A stretch of 64,000 nucleotides of DNA from Promethearchaeota archaeon. GTDB lineage: Archaea > Asgardarchaeota > Lokiarchaeia > Sigyniarchaeales > SOKP01. Positions 13,887 through 62,095 of the stretch are shown here, piece by piece. The notes below the pieces were generated by a model, which saw only the letters and a program-made list of their open reading frames with translations, did no database searches and was not told the DNA's origin. The stretch spans positions 64,001 through 128,000 of the forward strand of contig JAHLWP010000001.1 of NCBI GenBank assembly GCA_019057865.1. The letters are read 5' to 3'. Numbering within the stretch: the first letter of the stretch is position 1; every line of letters starts with the position of its first letter. The position numbers were made by a program, and so were the translations under genes.

Positions 13887-13955
13887 ATGTGTTAATGGTG
13901 CAACCATTTCTTCAACTGAGTTCTCATTTTTCTAACTCAGAATCATTAGACACAT
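13887..13955 (-). promoter_or_regulatory. Eukaryote-like SECIS element in the 3' UTR of hdrA-mvhD
   Basis: Minus strand: atgtgt-cta-ATGA-T-TCTGAGTT-AGAAAAATGAG-AACTCAGT-TGAA-ga-AATGG-TTGCA-CCATT-a-acacat. AUGA/GA core, 7-bp perfect stem, A-rich apical loop, closing helix; starts 8 nt after the mvhD stop. Confidence 0.88.
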
Positions 13956-13963
13956 TTTTCATT

Positions 13964-14443
13964 CTATTCGGTTTTTTTCTTTTTTTGTCCATTTGAATCC
14001 TTATTTTTTTCTAATAATAAAGATTCCTTTATAGGGTTGCTGCCTAAATTCTCAATGATCTCTGAAATTCTAATCATTTCTTCTTGAAATATCTGACCCT
14101 CTGCAGAGCTGCAATGAAACATTACGATTCTATCTGGTGATAGTCCAGTAGTCTTTAAAATTTCTTTAGCATAATTTACATTTCTTTCTGCTATAAGATT
14201 TCCAGTCTCATAGTCACATTCTCCTTCATATCATCCAGCCACTATAACACCATCAGCACCCTTTCCAATCGCTCGCATCAATAAACTTGGAGTTACTCGA
14301 CCTGTGCAATTTATTCTTACCGGTCTTATTGTTGCAGGATATTGAGCTCGAATTGTCCCTGCCATGTCAGCCCCTCCATATCCTCATTTCCAACAGAGAA
14401 AAGCTAATATTTTTTTATCTCTACTTTCTGTTATTTTTATCAC
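13964..14443 (-). CDS. mvhD: MvhD/VhuD (FlpD family) [2Fe-2S] subunit, selenoprotein with 2 Sec; absent from the ORF track
   Basis: Hand translation: ...KILAFLCWK-U-GYGGADMAG...RINCTGRV...GADGVIVAG-U-YEGECDYETGN...CSSAEG. TGA at 14386-14384 and 14233-14231 occupy conserved Cys positions. TAG stop at 13966-13964. Start GTG 14443 or ATA 14434. Confidence 0.93.
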
Positions 14444-14447
14444 CTCT

Positions 14448-16430
14448 TTATATTTCCTCTAATATTGCATCAATTTGCTTTTCATATTGAGGTTCTCGAT
14501 AATATCTTAAAGTTATTGCTTCTGAAGGGCAATTAGCTAAACAAGATCCACAACCTCTGCATAATATCTCGTTTACTTCCGCTCCATCATCCATTAACTG
14601 TATTGCGTCATAAGGACAATTTAACTCACACAGGCCACACTTCGCGCATTTTTCTTTATCAACTGTAGCACGTATTAATCTTATTCTATAAATTTCTTTC
14701 CCCATTAATCTTGAAAGTGATGATGCCGCCGCTCTACCTTGAACAATTGACTCAGCTATAGATTTAGGGCCTTGAGATACTCCTGCAAGCACAATACCTG
14801 GAATTTTTGTATCTATAGGATTTAATCTTGAATGAAACTCTTTAAAAAATCCATCTTGGCTGGTTTCAAGTTTTAGGATCTTCTGAAGCTTATCGTTACC
14901 TTTTGTTGGAACCATTGATGCTGATAAAACTACTAAATCATATTCGAGTTCTTTTATTCCTAATGATTCTCTAAGAGTATTTTGGATAATGACCTTAATA
15001 TTATGAGTATCAGGATCTTCTTTTAACTTAGAAATATTAGTTCTGATGTATCGAATACCTTCCTTTCGTGATGCAGTAAAATATTCTTCATAACCTTTAC
15101 CAGCAGCTCTTATATCCATATAAGCTACATCAATCTGAGTATCAGGATAATGTTGTTTAATTAATTTCGAGTTCTTAATTGCTATCATACAACAAACACC
15201 TGAACTACAATATGTATTTTTGTTTAAATCTCTTGAACCTACACATTGAATAAATAAAACATTTTTCGGTATTTTACCGTCAGAGGGTCTTACAAGATGC
15301 CCAAGTGTGGGTCCATTAGGAGCTAAAATTCTTTCTAGTTTCAATTCTGTAATTACATTTGGATATATATTATATCCAAGGTAGCCTGTTTCGGGTTCGT
15401 ATTCATCCCACCCTGTTGCTACAAGAACCGATCCTACTTTTAAAGTAACAAGTTCATCTTGTTGATCAAAATTAATTGCATCTAATTCACAGGCTTTCTG
15501 GCATAATCCACATTTAATACATTGGTTCATATCTATTTGAGCTATAGAAGGGACTGCTTGAGCAAAGGAAACATAGATAGCCTTTCTTGGGTTTAATCCT
15601 TCATTGAATTCATCATAACCATAAACAGGGCAAGGTTCGATACATGCTCCACACCCATTACATTCGTTTGTAACATATCGTGCTTTTTTCCTGATTGTTA
15701 CATCAAAGTTTCCCACAAATCCAGATATATCCTCCATTTCACTATAAGTATAAAGATTCAACCCAGGAGTTCTTGTCGCTTGAAGCATGACTGGTCCTAG
15801 AATTCATATACTACAATCATCAGTAGGAAATGTTCGGTCTAACAATGCCATTTTTCCACCTATAGTGGGACTCTTCTCAACTAGATGGACTTCAAATCCT
15901 TGTTCTGCTAAGTCAATAGCAGCAGTTAAACCAGCGACACCCCCACCAATTATTAATGCTTTTTGAGTTATATCTACTTCTTTAATTAAAATTTTCTCTA
16001 AAACAGCAGCTCTAGCGACTCCGGATCTAATGGCATCTTCTGCTACTTTTTGGGCACCAGGTTTATCATCTCGATGTACAAAACTAGCATGTTCTCTAAT
16101 ATTTACAAATTCTAAGTATGAAGGATCTAATCCCATCGACTCTAAAACGCTTTGAAACACAGGTTCATGAGTTATAGGGGTGCATGATGCTACAATTAAT
16201 CTATTTGCATTACTTTCATTCATATTTTCTTTTATAAATTCAGCTCCAGGCTCTGTACAGAGACTAATATAATCAGAAGCTCCAACTACATTAGGTAATG
16301 CTTTTGAAAATTCAACTAGTGCTCTGCAATCAATTATTTCAGCAATATTAATACCTCACTGACAGACAGCAACATAAATTTTCGGTATTTCTCCGATATC
16401 TTTAATTTCTTCGTGTTTGGTTTCTACCAT
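14448..16430 (-). CDS. hdrA: Heterodisulfide reductase subunit A, selenoprotein with 2 Sec (660 aa)
   Basis: One frame from ATG 16430: 'YVAVCQ-U-GINIA' (TGA 16358-16356) and 'FPTDDCSI-U-ILGPVM' (TGA 15806-15804). Joins track ORFs 15804-16223 and 14448-15788. GGGVAG FAD motif, QCVGSRD, ferredoxin motifs. Confidence 0.95.
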
Positions 16431-16613
16431 TGCATATCATTCCATTATGTAATTTTTGTTTGTCCTCCAAAAATTCGTATTTTTTTTAATTATAAATCTA
16501 AATATTATATTTTAATTAAATAAATTTAAATCAAAAATGTTTGTATATAAAAATAAGCTTAAAAATTATTTTAAAAATAAGCTTAAAACTTTAAAATTAA
16601 TTTTATTGGAAAA

Positions 16614-24288: not shown

Positions 24289-24370
24289 GGAATATATAGG
24301 ACGCAATCCTATTGTCAATCTTTTACTAGTATTTTTTTAAAAGATTTCATTCAATTTTTTTACATATTCC
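24289..24370 (-). promoter_or_regulatory. Second eukaryote-like SECIS element
   Basis: Minus strand: ggaatat-gtaaaaaattga-ATGA-A-ATCTTTTA-AAAAAATACTAG-TAAAAGAT-TGAC-a-ATAGGA-TTGCG-TCCTAT-atattcc. Perfect 8-bp stem, AUGA/GA core, A-run loop, same auxiliary TTGCR hairpin as 13887-13955. Confidence 0.85.
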
Positions 24371-24845
24371 TTTTTAATTTAAAATAATGGGCAAATATCT
24401 CATTATCTTTCCCATATCTTTTTCGAATGGTTGCTTTAAACCGTCCTATATCCAATCTATTTCTCACTTTTTCTCATCAACATCCCGAATCTGGTTGTAT
24501 ATCGATAATGCTATTTGGATATAGATTAAAATCTATATCTTCTCTTAATGGCATAAAATTCCTTGGGTTTCCCTCTTCATCTGGACCATATGGCATTAAT
24601 CCAATATCATCATAAATTTCATTTTGTTTAGGGTTCCACACGAGTTGCAGATAGTTATGGATATAATCCTTAAATATTGGGAAAATCGAATCTTGGGGGT
24701 GTTCAAAAATATATTTATCAACCATGGCTAAAGCTTGTACAAATGTGGCATTATCATCTACCTCAACAGTAAATTCCTTTCCTTTTGATAATCCCGTTAG
24801 TGGTATACTTATCTTAAACGTAATTTTCTTAATTTTTGTTATCAC
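24360..24845 (-). CDS. Beta-grasp (SAMP/MoaD-like) protein, candidate selenoprotein with Gly-Cys-Sec-Sec and a 37-aa tail
   Basis: ...NLYPNSIIDIQPDSG-TGT-TGA-TGA (24479-24474), then EKVRNRLDIGRFKATIRKRYGKDNEIFAHYFKLKRNM-TAA (24362-24360). SECIS directly follows. Start probably at or just after the GAGGTGA motif (GTG 24845). Confidence 0.78.
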
Positions 24846-24911
24846 CTCTAATTTTATATTAAAATATACAATAAAATAAAGATATAAAAAATTCATGAAT
24901 TAATTCTATTA

Positions 24912-25976
24912 TTATTTGTATTTACTGTTTGTCTCTTGATATCCTTTCCAGAAACCATGTCTACCTAAATATCTCCCTAAATAAACCAAGGATAACATTA
25001 CAGGAATTTCCCAGAATAACCCCATTGTAGTCCCTAAAGCGGCAATCGAACCTACACCATACATCGTTACAGCAACGGCAATCGCAATTTCGAAATGACT
25101 TGAAGACCCTATAAGTACCGTTATAATTGCTTGGCTATATTTCACTTTTAATACTTTAGTAACTATTATATTATACCCCACAACAATTGCAAATCCGACT
25201 AATAGGGGTACCGTAATTAAAAGCAATAAATCGGGGTTATCTATAAGCACTTGACCATTCAAGGAAAATAACACCATTAATGTCATTAATAAGGCAACTA
25301 TGGCTATAGTGGAAACAACCGGTCGGTATTTATTATGGAACCAATCTTCACCTTTGGATTTCACTAACGTTTTTTTACTAATTACGCCAAATAAGAGCGG
25401 AAGTCCGATAAATACTCCTAATGAAATCAATAACATGATTGGATCTAAAGGAATTTTCTTTTCTAAAGTAATATTTGCTATACTTACCAGAAGTGTCATT
25501 ACAGGTATATACAAAATAATTATTGTTATTGTATTTAAGCTGGTTGTAATAACATTTTGTTCTTGGTTTCCTTTTGCTAACCACCCCCATACCAAAACCA
25601 TTGCAGTACAAGGGCTACTACTTAGCAAGATAACTGCAAGTATAAGTTGCTGATTTCCTCCTAAAAATAAAAGTGCCATTCCGAGCCCTACAAATGGCGC
25701 GACAATCCAATTCGAAAAAAGTGTCAGTATGATAGGTTTTGGATTTTTTCCAAGCTTTTTTAACTCTGAGGCTTGAAGATTTAACATTGCCGGATACATC
25801 ATAAGAAATAAACAAACACCAATTGGTATAGAAATTCCGGCAATTTGCCAAGAATCAATTACTTCACTTATGCCTGGGACATACTGAGAGATAAGGATTC
25901 CGATAATAATGCATAACGCTATCCAAACTGGTAGCAATTTATCAAATACTCCAAGTTTTTTTTCTTCGTCACTCAT
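24912..25976 (-). CDS. acr3: ACR3-family arsenite efflux transporter
   Basis: LFLMMYPAM, NWIVAPF, SPCTAMVLVW, SSHFEIAIAVA, WEIPVML. Confidence 0.95.
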   Translation of the reverse strand: MSDEEKKLGVFDKLLPVWIALCIIIGILISQYVPGISEVIDSWQIAGISIPIGVCLFLMMYPAMLNLQASELKKLGKNPKPIILTLFSNWIVAPFVGLGMALLFLGGNQQLILAVILLSSSPCTAMVLVWGWLAKGNQEQNVITTSLNTITIIILYIPVMTLLVSIANITLEKKIPLDPIMLLISLGVFIGLPLLFGVISKKTLVKSKGEDWFHNKYRPVVSTIAIVALLMTLMVLFSLNGQVLIDNPDLLLLITVPLLVGFAIVVGYNIIVTKVLKVKYSQAIITVLIGSSSHFEIAIAVAVTMYGVGSIAALGTTMGLFWEIPVMLSLVYLGRYLGRHGFWKGYQETNSKYK

Positions 25977-26126: not shown

Positions 26127-26549
26127 TTGAAAGTGATACAAATTAAAAGTGAAAGAAAAGCTGAAATAATTAATAGTCTGAAACTATGTTTTGATCTTCA
26201 AGATCAAGATATAGAACCTTATTTTAATACCTTAAGAGAAATTGGTATTAAATTAAATAAAAATAAAAGTTTAATAGATCTTACGAAATTCTCCAATGTT
26301 TTAGGAAATGAAACCCGTTTTAAAATTGTACAGTTGTTAAATGATAAAGATTATTGTGTATGTGAATTGGAAGCAATAATAGATAAAGCGCAATCCTCAA
26401 TTTCTCATCATTTAAAAATACTTGAACGCATGAAAATAATAAGAGGTATAAAAAGAGGTTATTTTACTCATTATGAATTAATTAAAGAACAATTTCAGAA
26501 ATATGTACAGAATTTTGAGAAATATTTTGAATTATTTAATTTTTCATAA
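26127..26549 (+). CDS. arsR: ArsR/SmtB transcriptional repressor
   Basis: LGNETRFKIV, DYCVCEL, QSSISHHLKIL; divergent from acr3. Confidence 0.88.
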   Translation: MKVIQIKSERKAEIINSLKLCFDLQDQDIEPYFNTLREIGIKLNKNKSLIDLTKFSNVLGNETRFKIVQLLNDKDYCVCELEAIIDKAQSSISHHLKILERMKIIRGIKRGYFTHYELIKEQFQKYVQNFEKYFELFNFS

Positions 26550-31128: not shown

Positions 31129-32556
31129 ATGCCGATTATTAGACCAAAAATTAATCTATTAGATAATGAACATAAGAAATCAATTTTTACTGAAGCTAAA
31201 TTGATATTAGAGACTCAAGGTGTATTCCTTGAAAATCGAGAGGCAAAGGAGTTATTTAACCAGCATGAAATTGATTTTAAAGGTTCACGCTATTTTATTC
31301 CGCATGATTTAGTAGATAAATGTTTAGCCTCTGTACCTAGAGAAATAAGTTTATACGATAGAGAAGGGAATGAGCATATTCAATTAAAGAATGATCAAGT
31401 TCATTTTGATCCAGGTTCTGCTGCGATATTTATTCTTGATGAGAATACTGGAAAAATTAGAGAAGCCTTGTCGAGAGATTTTGTTCGCTTTTCAAAAGTG
31501 GTTGAGCATTTAAAATTTATTGAAGCTCAAAGTACGGCTTTAATTTATAAAGATGTTCCTAATGTAGCTCAGGACTGGCATCGATTATATATAGCTTTAT
31601 CTAATTGTTATAAACCGGTAGTAACCGGAACATTTCGTAAAGAAAGCTTTTCAATCATGCGGGAAATACTATTAGCCTGCAGACTATCTGAAGATGATTT
31701 AGCAAAAAAACCACTAGCTATCTTTGATGCATGCCCAAGTCCTCCTTTGAAGTGGTCTGATCTTACAACTCAATCTTTAATTGATGCAGCTAAAAGTATG
31801 ATACCATCTGAGTTTGTCTCGATGCCCTTAGCAGGTGCGAGCGCACCCATAACATTAATAGGATCCATCACACAACATTGTGCGGAATGTCTTGCTGGTG
31901 TTGTAATTGCTCAATTAACAAAGTATGGTGCACCCTTAGTATGGGGAGGTTCTCCGGCTGTATTTGATATGAAACAAGGAACAACTCCAATGGGTGCAAT
32001 CGAGACGATGATGATAAACATTGGAGATATTGAAATGGGAAAATTCTTGAATATGCCTACTCATGCATATATGGGTTTAAGTGATTCAAAAGTTCCTGAT
32101 AGCCAAGCAGGTTTTGAAGCAGGAATGGGAGCCCTTTTAGCAGCACTTGCTGGAAATAATATGGTTTCTGGTCCTGGGATGTTAGATTTTGAATCTACGC
32201 AAAGTATAGAAAAATTAATAATTGACAATGAAATTGTAGGAATGGTAAAACGTTTTATCCAAGGTATAGAGGATTATGGTTCTCCTTTTGCAGCCGAAAT
32301 TATAAAAGATTATGAAGAAACACAAGAATTATTATCTCATCCAACGACTTTAAAATATTTTAGAAAAGAACTCTTCTTACCAAGTCCTATTATAGATAGA
32401 ACAACTCGTGATACGTGGAAAGCATTAGGATCTAAATCTGCAAGAAAAAGAGCAAGAGAAGAAGCAGCTAAATTAGTAAAGAAAACACCAATAAAACCTA
32501 TTGATGATTCTCTTATTAAAGATTTAGATAAAATAGTAAAGAATGCATTAAAATAA
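31129..32556 (+). CDS. MttB-superfamily (non-pyrrolysine) methylamine/quaternary amine methyltransferase
   Basis: SPPLKW, MPLAGASAPITLIG, FDMKQG, GLSDSKVPDSQAGFE, GPGML; no in-frame TAG. Confidence 0.9.
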   Translation: MPIIRPKINLLDNEHKKSIFTEAKLILETQGVFLENREAKELFNQHEIDFKGSRYFIPHDLVDKCLASVPREISLYDREGNEHIQLKNDQVHFDPGSAAIFILDENTGKIREALSRDFVRFSKVVEHLKFIEAQSTALIYKDVPNVAQDWHRLYIALSNCYKPVVTGTFRKESFSIMREILLACRLSEDDLAKKPLAIFDACPSPPLKWSDLTTQSLIDAAKSMIPSEFVSMPLAGASAPITLIGSITQHCAECLAGVVIAQLTKYGAPLVWGGSPAVFDMKQGTTPMGAIETMMINIGDIEMGKFLNMPTHAYMGLSDSKVPDSQAGFEAGMGALLAALAGNNMVSGPGMLDFESTQSIEKLIIDNEIVGMVKRFIQGIEDYGSPFAAEIIKDYEETQELLSHPTTLKYFRKELFLPSPIIDRTTRDTWKALGSKSARKRAREEAAKLVKKTPIKPIDDSLIKDLDKIVKNALK

Positions 32557-61992: not shown

Positions 61993-62095
61993 GGCCGGGT
62001 TCGTCTAGTGGTAAGGATTGGGGACTGTGAATCCCTAGAGGTTTAAGATCTATTCTATTACCGGGGAAAGACGGGTTCAATTCCCGTACCCGGCC
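61993..62095 (+). tRNA. tRNA-His(GUG) with a 30-nt intron (62039-62068) at about position 45/46
   Basis: Acceptor GCCGGGT/ACCCGGC, encoded G-1 and C73, anticodon loop CTGTGAA (GTG 62027-62029), T arm ACGGG-TTCAATT-CCCGT. The insertion forms a bulge-helix-bulge. Confidence 0.9.

Follow-up and report, generated by a model that had tools for sequence, protein, structure and literature searches.

Archaeal SECIS elements predicted to hold a kink-turn on a three-way junction with an integral third arm

The window analyzed here, a stretch of 64,000 nucleotides (contig C23:64001-128000) from a 4.26-Mb genome of 29% G+C, carries two SECIS elements, both present where the first-pass annotation of this DNA had reported them and both on the minus strand (table 1). 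Element 1 lies at the end of a gene whose coding sequence it partly overlaps, the 5' strand of its helix I falling within the end of the coding region and the TAA stop codon occupying positions 24360-24362. Under translation table 11, this reading frame would end at ...Ser-Gly-Cys-UGA-UGA. The encoded protein is 49% identical over 146 aa to a paralogue on contig C57, across both UGA codons and through a conserved 35-residue tail, and since alignment and conservation continue past both UGA, both codons appear to be read; the tandem would most simply be decoded as Sec-Sec. No Pfam family matched this protein. The adjacent gene at 24912-25976 (minus strand) is taken, by eye from its translation, to encode an ACR3-like arsenite efflux protein, and the nearby one at 26127-26549 (plus strand) is presumably, on the same kind of inspection, an ArsR-like regulator. 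The Sec-Sec family is absent from the seven Asgard selenoprotein families given in the text of Huang et al. 2024 (PMC11227280).

Element 2 follows the hdrA-vhuD pair, the vhuD stop codon lying 17 nt before its AUGA and the next same-strand gene beginning about 30 nt after it. That one SECIS serves both genes of such a pair is an arrangement already described in the text of Mariotti et al. (2016, PMC4989117). Three UGA codons are in frame in hdrA: one in the context ...DDCSI-U-ILG..., another within the cluster motif ...VAVCQ-U-GINIA... at the N terminus, and the last close to the start, whose position is uncertain. Sediment DNA from two unrelated runs covers 13896-13943, a stretch comprising helix II and the arm, at a contig depth about 10 times that of the flanks, which suggests many strains or paralogues in which this short stretch is nearly unchanged. 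As for RNA, a cold-seep metatranscriptome yielded one 158-nt contig that matches vhuD at 14234-14391 with 4 differences and ends short of the SECIS, and a second RNA run gave no match.

At Rfam gathering thresholds, no SECIS family matched element 1 or 2, and the window returned only two matches. One of them (32077-32176, plus strand) is to PYLIS_3, the mttB pyrrolysine insertion sequence, at 49.6 bits; UUA stands at the UAG position, and the locus is probably a non-Pyl MttB-family gene retaining the sequence. The other (61994-62095, plus strand) is a tRNA gene which, in the Rfam alignment, has some 31 extra nucleotides in the region of the variable arm; these are most likely an archaeal tRNA intron. 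Together with the SECIS shared by hdrA and vhuD and with relatives labelled Promethearchaeota, the intron-containing tRNA marks the genome as that of an Asgard archaeon of Loki type.

Table 1. Coordinates of the two SECIS elements, their predicted parts and the genes they would serve, with stop codons embedded in the core AUGA elsewhere in the genome
Feature	Position	Strand	Remarks
SECIS element 1, whole three-way junction	24289..24370	-	serves the predicted Cys-Sec-Sec gene; sequence, MFE fold
Element 1 helix I, 5' strand GGAAUAU	24364..24370	-	pairs with 24289-24295
Element 1 kink-turn, 5' strand	24347..24353	-	C-stem U-G 24353-24352, bulge A-A-U 24351-24349, G-A 24348-24347
Element 1 AUGA	24350-24347	-	
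Element 1 helix II, 9 bp	within 24317..24346	-	24346-24338 with 24325-24317
Element 1 apical loop, 12 nt	24337-24326	-	AAAAAAUACUAG; A-rich, AG end
Element 1 kink-turn, 3' strand	24313..24316	-	G-A of tandem G.A 24316-24315, C-stem 3' strand C-A 24314-24313
Element 1 side hairpin (third arm)	24296..24312	-	AUAGGA-UUGCG-UCCUAU
Element 1 helix I, 3' strand AUAUUCC	24289..24295	-	abuts side hairpin without spacer
Sec-Sec protein CDS	24363..24896	-	start uncertain
Tandem in-frame UGA-UGA (Cys-Sec-Sec)	24474..24479	-	about 125 nt upstream of element 1 AUGA
SECIS element 2, whole three-way junction	13887..13955	-	common to hdrA-vhuD; sequence, MFE fold
Element 2 helix I, 5' strand AUGUGU	13955-13950	-	pairs with ACACAU
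Element 2 kink-turn, 5' strand	within 13943..13955	-	C-stem C-U 13949-13948, bulge A-A-U 13947-13945, G-A 13944-13943
Element 2 AUGA	13946-13943	-	
Element 2 helix II and 11-nt loop	13914..13942	-	loop AGAAAAAUGAG; two U.U by the G.A pairs, then 7 Watson-Crick
Element 2 kink-turn, 3' strand	within 13893..13913	-	G-A 13913-13912, C-stem A-G 13911-13910
Element 2 side hairpin (third arm)	13908-13894	-	AAUGG-UUGCA-CCAUU
Element 2 helix I, 3' strand ACACAU	13887..13892	-	single A between hairpin and strand
vhuD/mvhD (FlpD family)	13964..14443	-	two in-frame UGA; Pfam PF02662, E = 3e-41
hdrA	14448 to about 16430-16445	-	in-frame UGA codons; without own SECIS, uses element 2
Stop within AUGA, vhuD copy	C23:5904 (L003:198-201)		
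Stop within AUGA, vhuU	C54:17264 (L006:4001-4004)		
Stop within AUGA, second Sec-Sec gene	C57:15873 (L007:4001-4004)		

When both elements were folded, as had been proposed from the sequence, the three-way fold proved to be the minimum-free-energy structure of each (RNAfold), with z = -4.1 and 0 of 200 shuffles as good for element 1, and z = -2.1 and 6 of 200 shuffles as good for element 2. Both have AUGA directly 5' of the main stem, as do 97/97 aligned relatives, and GA directly 3' of it, where the relatives have GA (64/97) or AA (33/97). The two apical loops start A-rich and end in AG, the last base being G in 97/97 relatives and the base before it A in 90/97. Stem and loop measure 9 bp and 12 nt in element 1, 9 positions and 11 nt in element 2, so that the arms, initially described as 8 nt plus one unspecified nucleotide, in fact span nine positions in each element, as in the published lokiSECIS. 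The latter is defined, in the text of Mariotti et al. (2016, PMC4989117), by AUGA, a 9-bp stem, an 11-nt loop with leading adenines and a terminal AG, and GA, and corresponds to the type I eSECIS-like element of Asgard archaea in the text of Huang, Xiao & Zhang (2024, PMC11227280). The likeness takes in AUGA, stem, loop, GA or AA, the location just behind the coding sequence, the sharing between hdrA and vhuD and the AA variant behind VhuU; the element 1 loop differs in being one nucleotide longer than the published 11. With every published core feature of the lokiSECIS matched, elements 1 and 2 are, judging from their sequences, SECIS of the Lokiarchaeal "eukaryote-like" kind, as they had first been labelled, and are predicted to direct Sec insertion.

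To place these two elements among the SECIS of their genome, we combined a pattern scan with a covariance model of the core alone, without the hairpin (R1), for which a 12-core MAFFT alignment with misplaced gaps (A1) was dropped and a gapless alignment of 10 sequences (A2) used instead. R1 returned 13 elements at 32.7 bits or more, one doubtful match at 28.8 bits and noise at no more than 23.5 bits; element 2 scored 39.3 bits, and element 1 scored 36.6 bits though outside the R1 seed. Twelve of the 13 lie directly behind a UGA-containing ORF, which is where model hits had been expected to fall: the genes ahead of them are PrxL, four hdrA-vhuD pairs, VhuU, two Sec-Sec genes, a duplicated small four-UGA gene and two genes for tiny membrane peptides. 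All 13 have a hairpin of 4-7 bp about 2 nt after GA/AA, and both SelD genes, which carry the published type II SECIS, likewise have an arm (CCGUU-GCGA-AACGG and CCAC-GCGCGAU-GUGG, with helix I pairing GAUG with CAUC), which brings the count to 15 of 15 SECIS found in this genome. The closing helix is evident in most of these elements and is weak, made of A-U pairs only or not obvious in those of contigs C57, C61, C66 and C71. The suggestion that the hairpin would sharpen the search is borne out by the scores, the gap between true elements and noise running from 40.4 down to 21 bits with the three-arm model and from 32.7 to 28.8 bits with the core alone. The full model R3 gave element 1 a score of 57 bits (window 24290-24361) and missed element 2 and its paralogue, and one model therefore does not span all geometries. 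As for the doubtful match (C55:19375-19408), it was rejected as a SECIS: it has no upstream ORF and no arm, and scores 16.9 bits with the full model.

Several of these loci have particularities of their own. In three genes, the stop codon is the UGA of the core AUGA, so that the coding region enters the kink-turn (table 1). An ORF of contig C61 (L010:210-422, minus strand) encodes 70 residues, among them two CxxC pairs, contains four in-frame UGA codons and precedes a three-armed SECIS; it is duplicated on C81 (L011), both being short contigs, and is possibly an unlisted multi-Sec protein. A hydrophobic ORF of 31 residues on C71 (L009:3871-3966, plus strand), ending in ...Ser-Thr-UGA-UAA, and a tiny hydrophobic ORF upstream of C37:63610 (L005), ending in ...Gly-Gly-Ser-UGA, are each followed, within some 40 nt, by a SECIS and may encode mini-selenoproteins whose Sec is C-terminal or nearly so. 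Lastly, the SECIS at C66:81248-81317 (L008:3990-4059, plus strand) has an intact arm, two mismatches in helix II and no upstream ORF on the same strand; a divergently transcribed P-type ATPase gene starts there. In related SECIS the helix is perfect and the 5' flank is not the same, and this copy may be a decaying orphan.

The side hairpin is equally widespread outside the source genome. Model R1, which ignores the hairpin, gave matches in each of 36 congeneric species, and 120 matches from these congeners were fetched for comparison, the unique elements totalling 131-132. In 125 of 131 unique elements, a fully paired stem of 4 bp or more starts 0-4 nt after GA/AA, and a stem with at least two G-C pairs is found at that position in 103 of 131 (79%), against 4-6% for the latter in controls made of shuffled flanks and random genome positions. 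The stems themselves vary widely (ACCUU/AAGGU, AUCCCU/AGGGAU, AACCC/GGGUU, AACGG/CCGUU, ACAGUU/GACUGU). In 97 elements aligned with a three-way model (R2), 90.2% of the cells are paired in helix I, 94.9% in helix II and 91.1% in the side arm, percentages that are inflated by the fitting of the alignment to a model containing the helices and that come from elements of related species, which are not independent; bases change on both sides in 6/6, 9/9 and 5/5 pairs, respectively. When partners were slid by 1-3 columns, 36-54% of cells remained paired, and none of 500 shuffles reached the observed pairing. The hairpin-frequency test above and the C-stem count below are free of this model-fit inflation. 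The first-pass annotation, which had seen in the hairpin a genuine, covarying arm forming a three-way junction with the closing helix, is thus upheld on this point.

The arm is conserved in its pairing and position more than in its dimensions: its length and loop size vary, the loop ranging from 3 to 11 nt, and its stem is 51% G+C in a genome of 29%. In most elements it abuts helix I without spacer, columns 82-85 of the alignment being nearly all gaps. Orthologous Sec-Sec genes of many congeners have a hairpin of the same class as element 1, with loops UUGCU, UUGUU, AGGCC and UGC, and the paralogue and orthologues of element 2 retain theirs with loops GUGCA, GAGCA and UGC. The UUGCR motif, put forward earlier as the conserved loop, does not hold up, for TTGC followed by A or G occurs in just 7 of 125 loops. 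In the model-fitted alignment, the central base of the arm loop is G in 93/97 elements, the next Y in 94/97 and the one after that R in 74/97, so that the conserved feature of the loop is, as far as this alignment indicates, G-Y-R instead of UUGCR. A loop-loop pairing was also looked for by eye in the column table, where neither the apical loop nor the 5' strand showed a conserved complement.

The k-turn is built, in this order, of a C stem, a 3-nt bulge, tandem trans sugar-Hoogsteen G.A/A.G pairs and an NC helix, and the core of the present elements can be read in the same order. K-turns are also characterised by a kink with A-minor contacts between the strands and by their affinity for L7Ae-family proteins. 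The base 2 nt before AUGA and the base just after GA/AA would form the inner pair of the C stem: counted by position in 132 unique elements, without alignment and with the C stem absent from every model, this pair is G-C in 104, A-U in 17, U-A in 8, C-G in 2, G.U in 1 and unpaired in none (on the alignment: G-C 79, A-U 12, G.U 2, unpaired 0), and the second, outer pair is formed in 111 of 132. Elements 1 and 2 follow this rule with different letters (U-G/C-A and C-U/A-G), the pairs being U24353-A24313 and G24352-C24314 in the former, and C13949-G13910 and U13948-A13911 in the latter, where they are compensatory with respect to the commonest form, A-G with C-U. Next comes a bulge of 3 nt, consisting of A or G and then the A-U of AUGA, and G-A stands opposite G/A-A; at the first position of helix II (3b.3n), no more than 58% of elements have a Watson-Crick or G.U pair. 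Helix I is separated from AUGA by 13 nt in element 1, against about 5 usually. Taken together, the core is predicted to be a canonical kink-turn, with a 2-bp C stem, a 3-nt bulge and tandem G.A, set on a three-way junction.

A kink-turn with a third helix in its non-bulged strand, coaxial with the C helix, is known as a k-junction, as in the TPP riboswitch (Wang, Daldrop, Huang & Lilley 2014, PMC4005666). The arm described here also branches off the non-bulged strand, 2 nt beyond G-A, and in most elements no spacer parts it from helix I; the predicted topology would therefore be that of a k-junction. There are differences, however: two regular pairs stand here between G.A and the branch point, so that one could equally speak of a k-turn beside a three-way junction, and the context is an mRNA recoding signal rather than a riboswitch, known here through its sequence.

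With regard to its taxonomic spread, the full model R3 matched at full length in all 25 genomes sampled from the family, which span six genera and have 3-11 such matches each, and outside the family it matched once in each of two other families. Two other Promethearchaeota MAGs and a Jordarchaeum show the same layout, with other dimensions, downstream of vhuD. A search based on a VhuD alignment yielded mostly Cys homologues of bacteria and methanogens (6 of 80 loci were useful), and a phylum-wide VhuD protein search had only one family (f1) among the matches listed; SelD was therefore taken instead. The three-arm layout was found behind Sec-containing SelD in six families (f2, f9, f20, f21, f28 and f31), based on 20 SelD 3' regions, 12 of which were clear with a crude core finder and 2 (L216 and L220) by eye, the other 6 being left uncounted. 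For instance, the SelD elements of f31 pair GAGACCG with CGGUCUC in helix I and C-C with G-G in the C stem, and their arm is GCUGC-CGCAA-GCAGC, with compensatory variants. Since the layout is found in the family and behind SelD in six more, we infer that the third arm is Asgard-wide rather than a peculiarity of two elements. What had been introduced as a variant shared by two elements is rather the normal form in the genome, in the family and in the SelD SECIS of six further families.

In eukaryotic SECIS, the internal loop is plain on its 3' side, and helix II is longer than here. Forms 1 and 2 resemble the present elements by the tandem G.A of AUGA..GA, the succession of helix I, internal loop and helix II, the apical adenines and the location 3' of the coding region; they differ in that, here, the 3' side of the "loop" would be a whole helix and the core flanks would form a C stem and a 3-nt bulge. 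The reader of the eukaryotic elements, SBP2, is to our knowledge absent from archaea, and we found neither a homologue of it nor any SBP2-like protein in the source genome, the search yielding no more than two small ORFs of the L7Ae family (125 and 133 aa). Among archaea, the vhuD SECIS of Methanococcales and Methanopyrus are described in the text of Mariotti et al. (2016) with AUGA opposite GAC/AAC and a "short extra stem", which corresponds to the Asgard C stem (GG with CC in Methanothermococcus), whereas their helix II has the euryarchaeal GAA_A bulge. In a MAG of Methanothermococcus okinawensis, the vhuD SECIS (L146:1599-1720, plus strand) has AUGA, a GAA_A-bulged helix, GA, and C-C paired with G-G; it is followed, 2 nt after GA, by a G+C-rich hairpin (GCCUCC-AAAGUA-GGGGGU) and then by U-runs, and this hairpin, seen at one locus, may be either homologous to the third arm or a terminator. 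When a Lokiarchaeal SECIS was assayed in Methanococcus maripaludis, it did not function (PMC11881835).

The side hairpin, said earlier to have no counterpart in eukaryotic SECIS, is also missing from the descriptions in the texts consulted, figures and supplements aside. The lokiSECIS text (PMC4989117) covers the core, the upper stem and the loop only, and the text of PMC11227280 adds a generic lower stem and an internal loop with no conserved nucleotides; the third arm, the G-Y-R loop, the C stem and the three-way junction go unmentioned in both, though they may be drawn in figures or supplements. The third helix, the junction and the C stem are likewise unmentioned in the texts, figures aside, of a 2026 review and of Peiter & Rother 2025, and our literature searches found no description of a SECIS three-way junction. 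The three-armed form refines a known signal rather than defining a new one.

On this basis, we consider it very probable that elements 1 and 2 are functional SECIS in which a kink-turn sits on a three-way junction, with the side hairpin as an integral third arm. Read from 5' to 3', the conserved fold, as covariation shows it, begins with helix I, 0-2 nt (10 nt in element 1), the 2-bp C stem (usually A-G with C-U) and the A-A-U bulge, continues through the tandem G.A/A.G (or A.A) into the 9-bp helix II with its A-rich loop, returns via G-A and the C stem, and ends with the side hairpin (4-7 bp, G+C-rich, central G-Y-R) and, mostly without spacer, the 3' strand of helix I. Three other origins of the hairpin have to be weighed against this reading. 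That it is a separate 3'-end element adjoining the SECIS, either a terminator or an mRNA-stabilising stem, would suit the location of SECIS at gene ends, the U-runs that often come after the whole element (e.g., ...AAGGGG then UUUUU) and the Methanothermococcus hairpin with its U-runs; however, the hairpin is enclosed by a covarying helix I, it stands at a set distance from GA, about 2 nt, and these nucleotides themselves pair across the kink-turn, no U-runs follow the hairpin itself, and a same-strand gene starts so shortly after element 2, which together make this origin improbable. Even less credence can be given to the idea of a second SECIS of euryarchaeal type (GAA_A bulge) beside the eukaryote-like one: such eaSECIS-like structures are reported for 3.4% of the selenoprotein genes in Asgard archaea, for the most part located after the eSECIS-like element (text of PMC11227280), but the arms, plain hairpins of 4-7 bp, lack the GAA_A internal bulge, are nested inside helix I and occur in nearly all elements rather than in 3.4%. 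As to chance complementarity or a compositional artefact, hairpins of at least 4 bp do arise at 44% of positions taken at random from this A+T-rich genome, but the excess of stems with at least two G-C pairs over background, the compensatory change in every pair and the conservation of the layout over seven families leave it scarcely credible.

If the hairpin is an integral arm, what it does is a distinct question. The arm would probably stack coaxially on helix I, as proposed because no spacer separates them in most elements, and would thereby hold both the short C stem and the kink in place, as a k-junction would, the near-invariant loop G being held at a fixed position beside the kink-turn. 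Arm and kink-turn would then, most likely, form a composite surface by which the archaeal SECIS reader separates these mRNAs from other kink-turns. As first suggested, the hairpin itself may bind SelB or another factor. A purely architectural role, in which the hairpin stabilises junction and kink-turn by stacking without contacting any factor, and in which the loop G makes an intramolecular contact only or closes a stable small loop, is quite possible, if less likely than not: the general lack of a spacer favors coaxial stacking, the stem is far richer in G+C than the genome, and a protein site recognised by its sequence would not usually vary so in arm length and loop size, but a near-invariant G-Y in a free loop exceeds what stability needs, and inspection by eye of the apical loop and 5' strand gave the loop G no conserved complementary partner. 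More tentatively still, and as a conjunction of two ideas that we regard as doubtful in combination, the arm and its loop G could be the docking site of the archaeal SECIS reader (a SelB domain, or L7Ae/L30e with SelB) and the three-armed form could be ancestral to eukaryotic SECIS, with their 3' internal loop as the remnant of an arm lost once SBP2 took over recognition.

The structural definition proposed here, being complete, offers concrete mutants and baits for finding the archaeal SECIS reader, and raises the possibility that earlier heterologous tests were made with truncated elements. It also alters the comparison that underlies the argument for an "archaea-to-eukaryote SECIS transition". 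Finally, it provides a much more selective search model, which in the source genome points to candidate selenoproteins outside the seven Asgard families of 2024, namely, the Cys-Sec-Sec protein, a four-Sec small protein and tiny membrane peptides ending in Sec.
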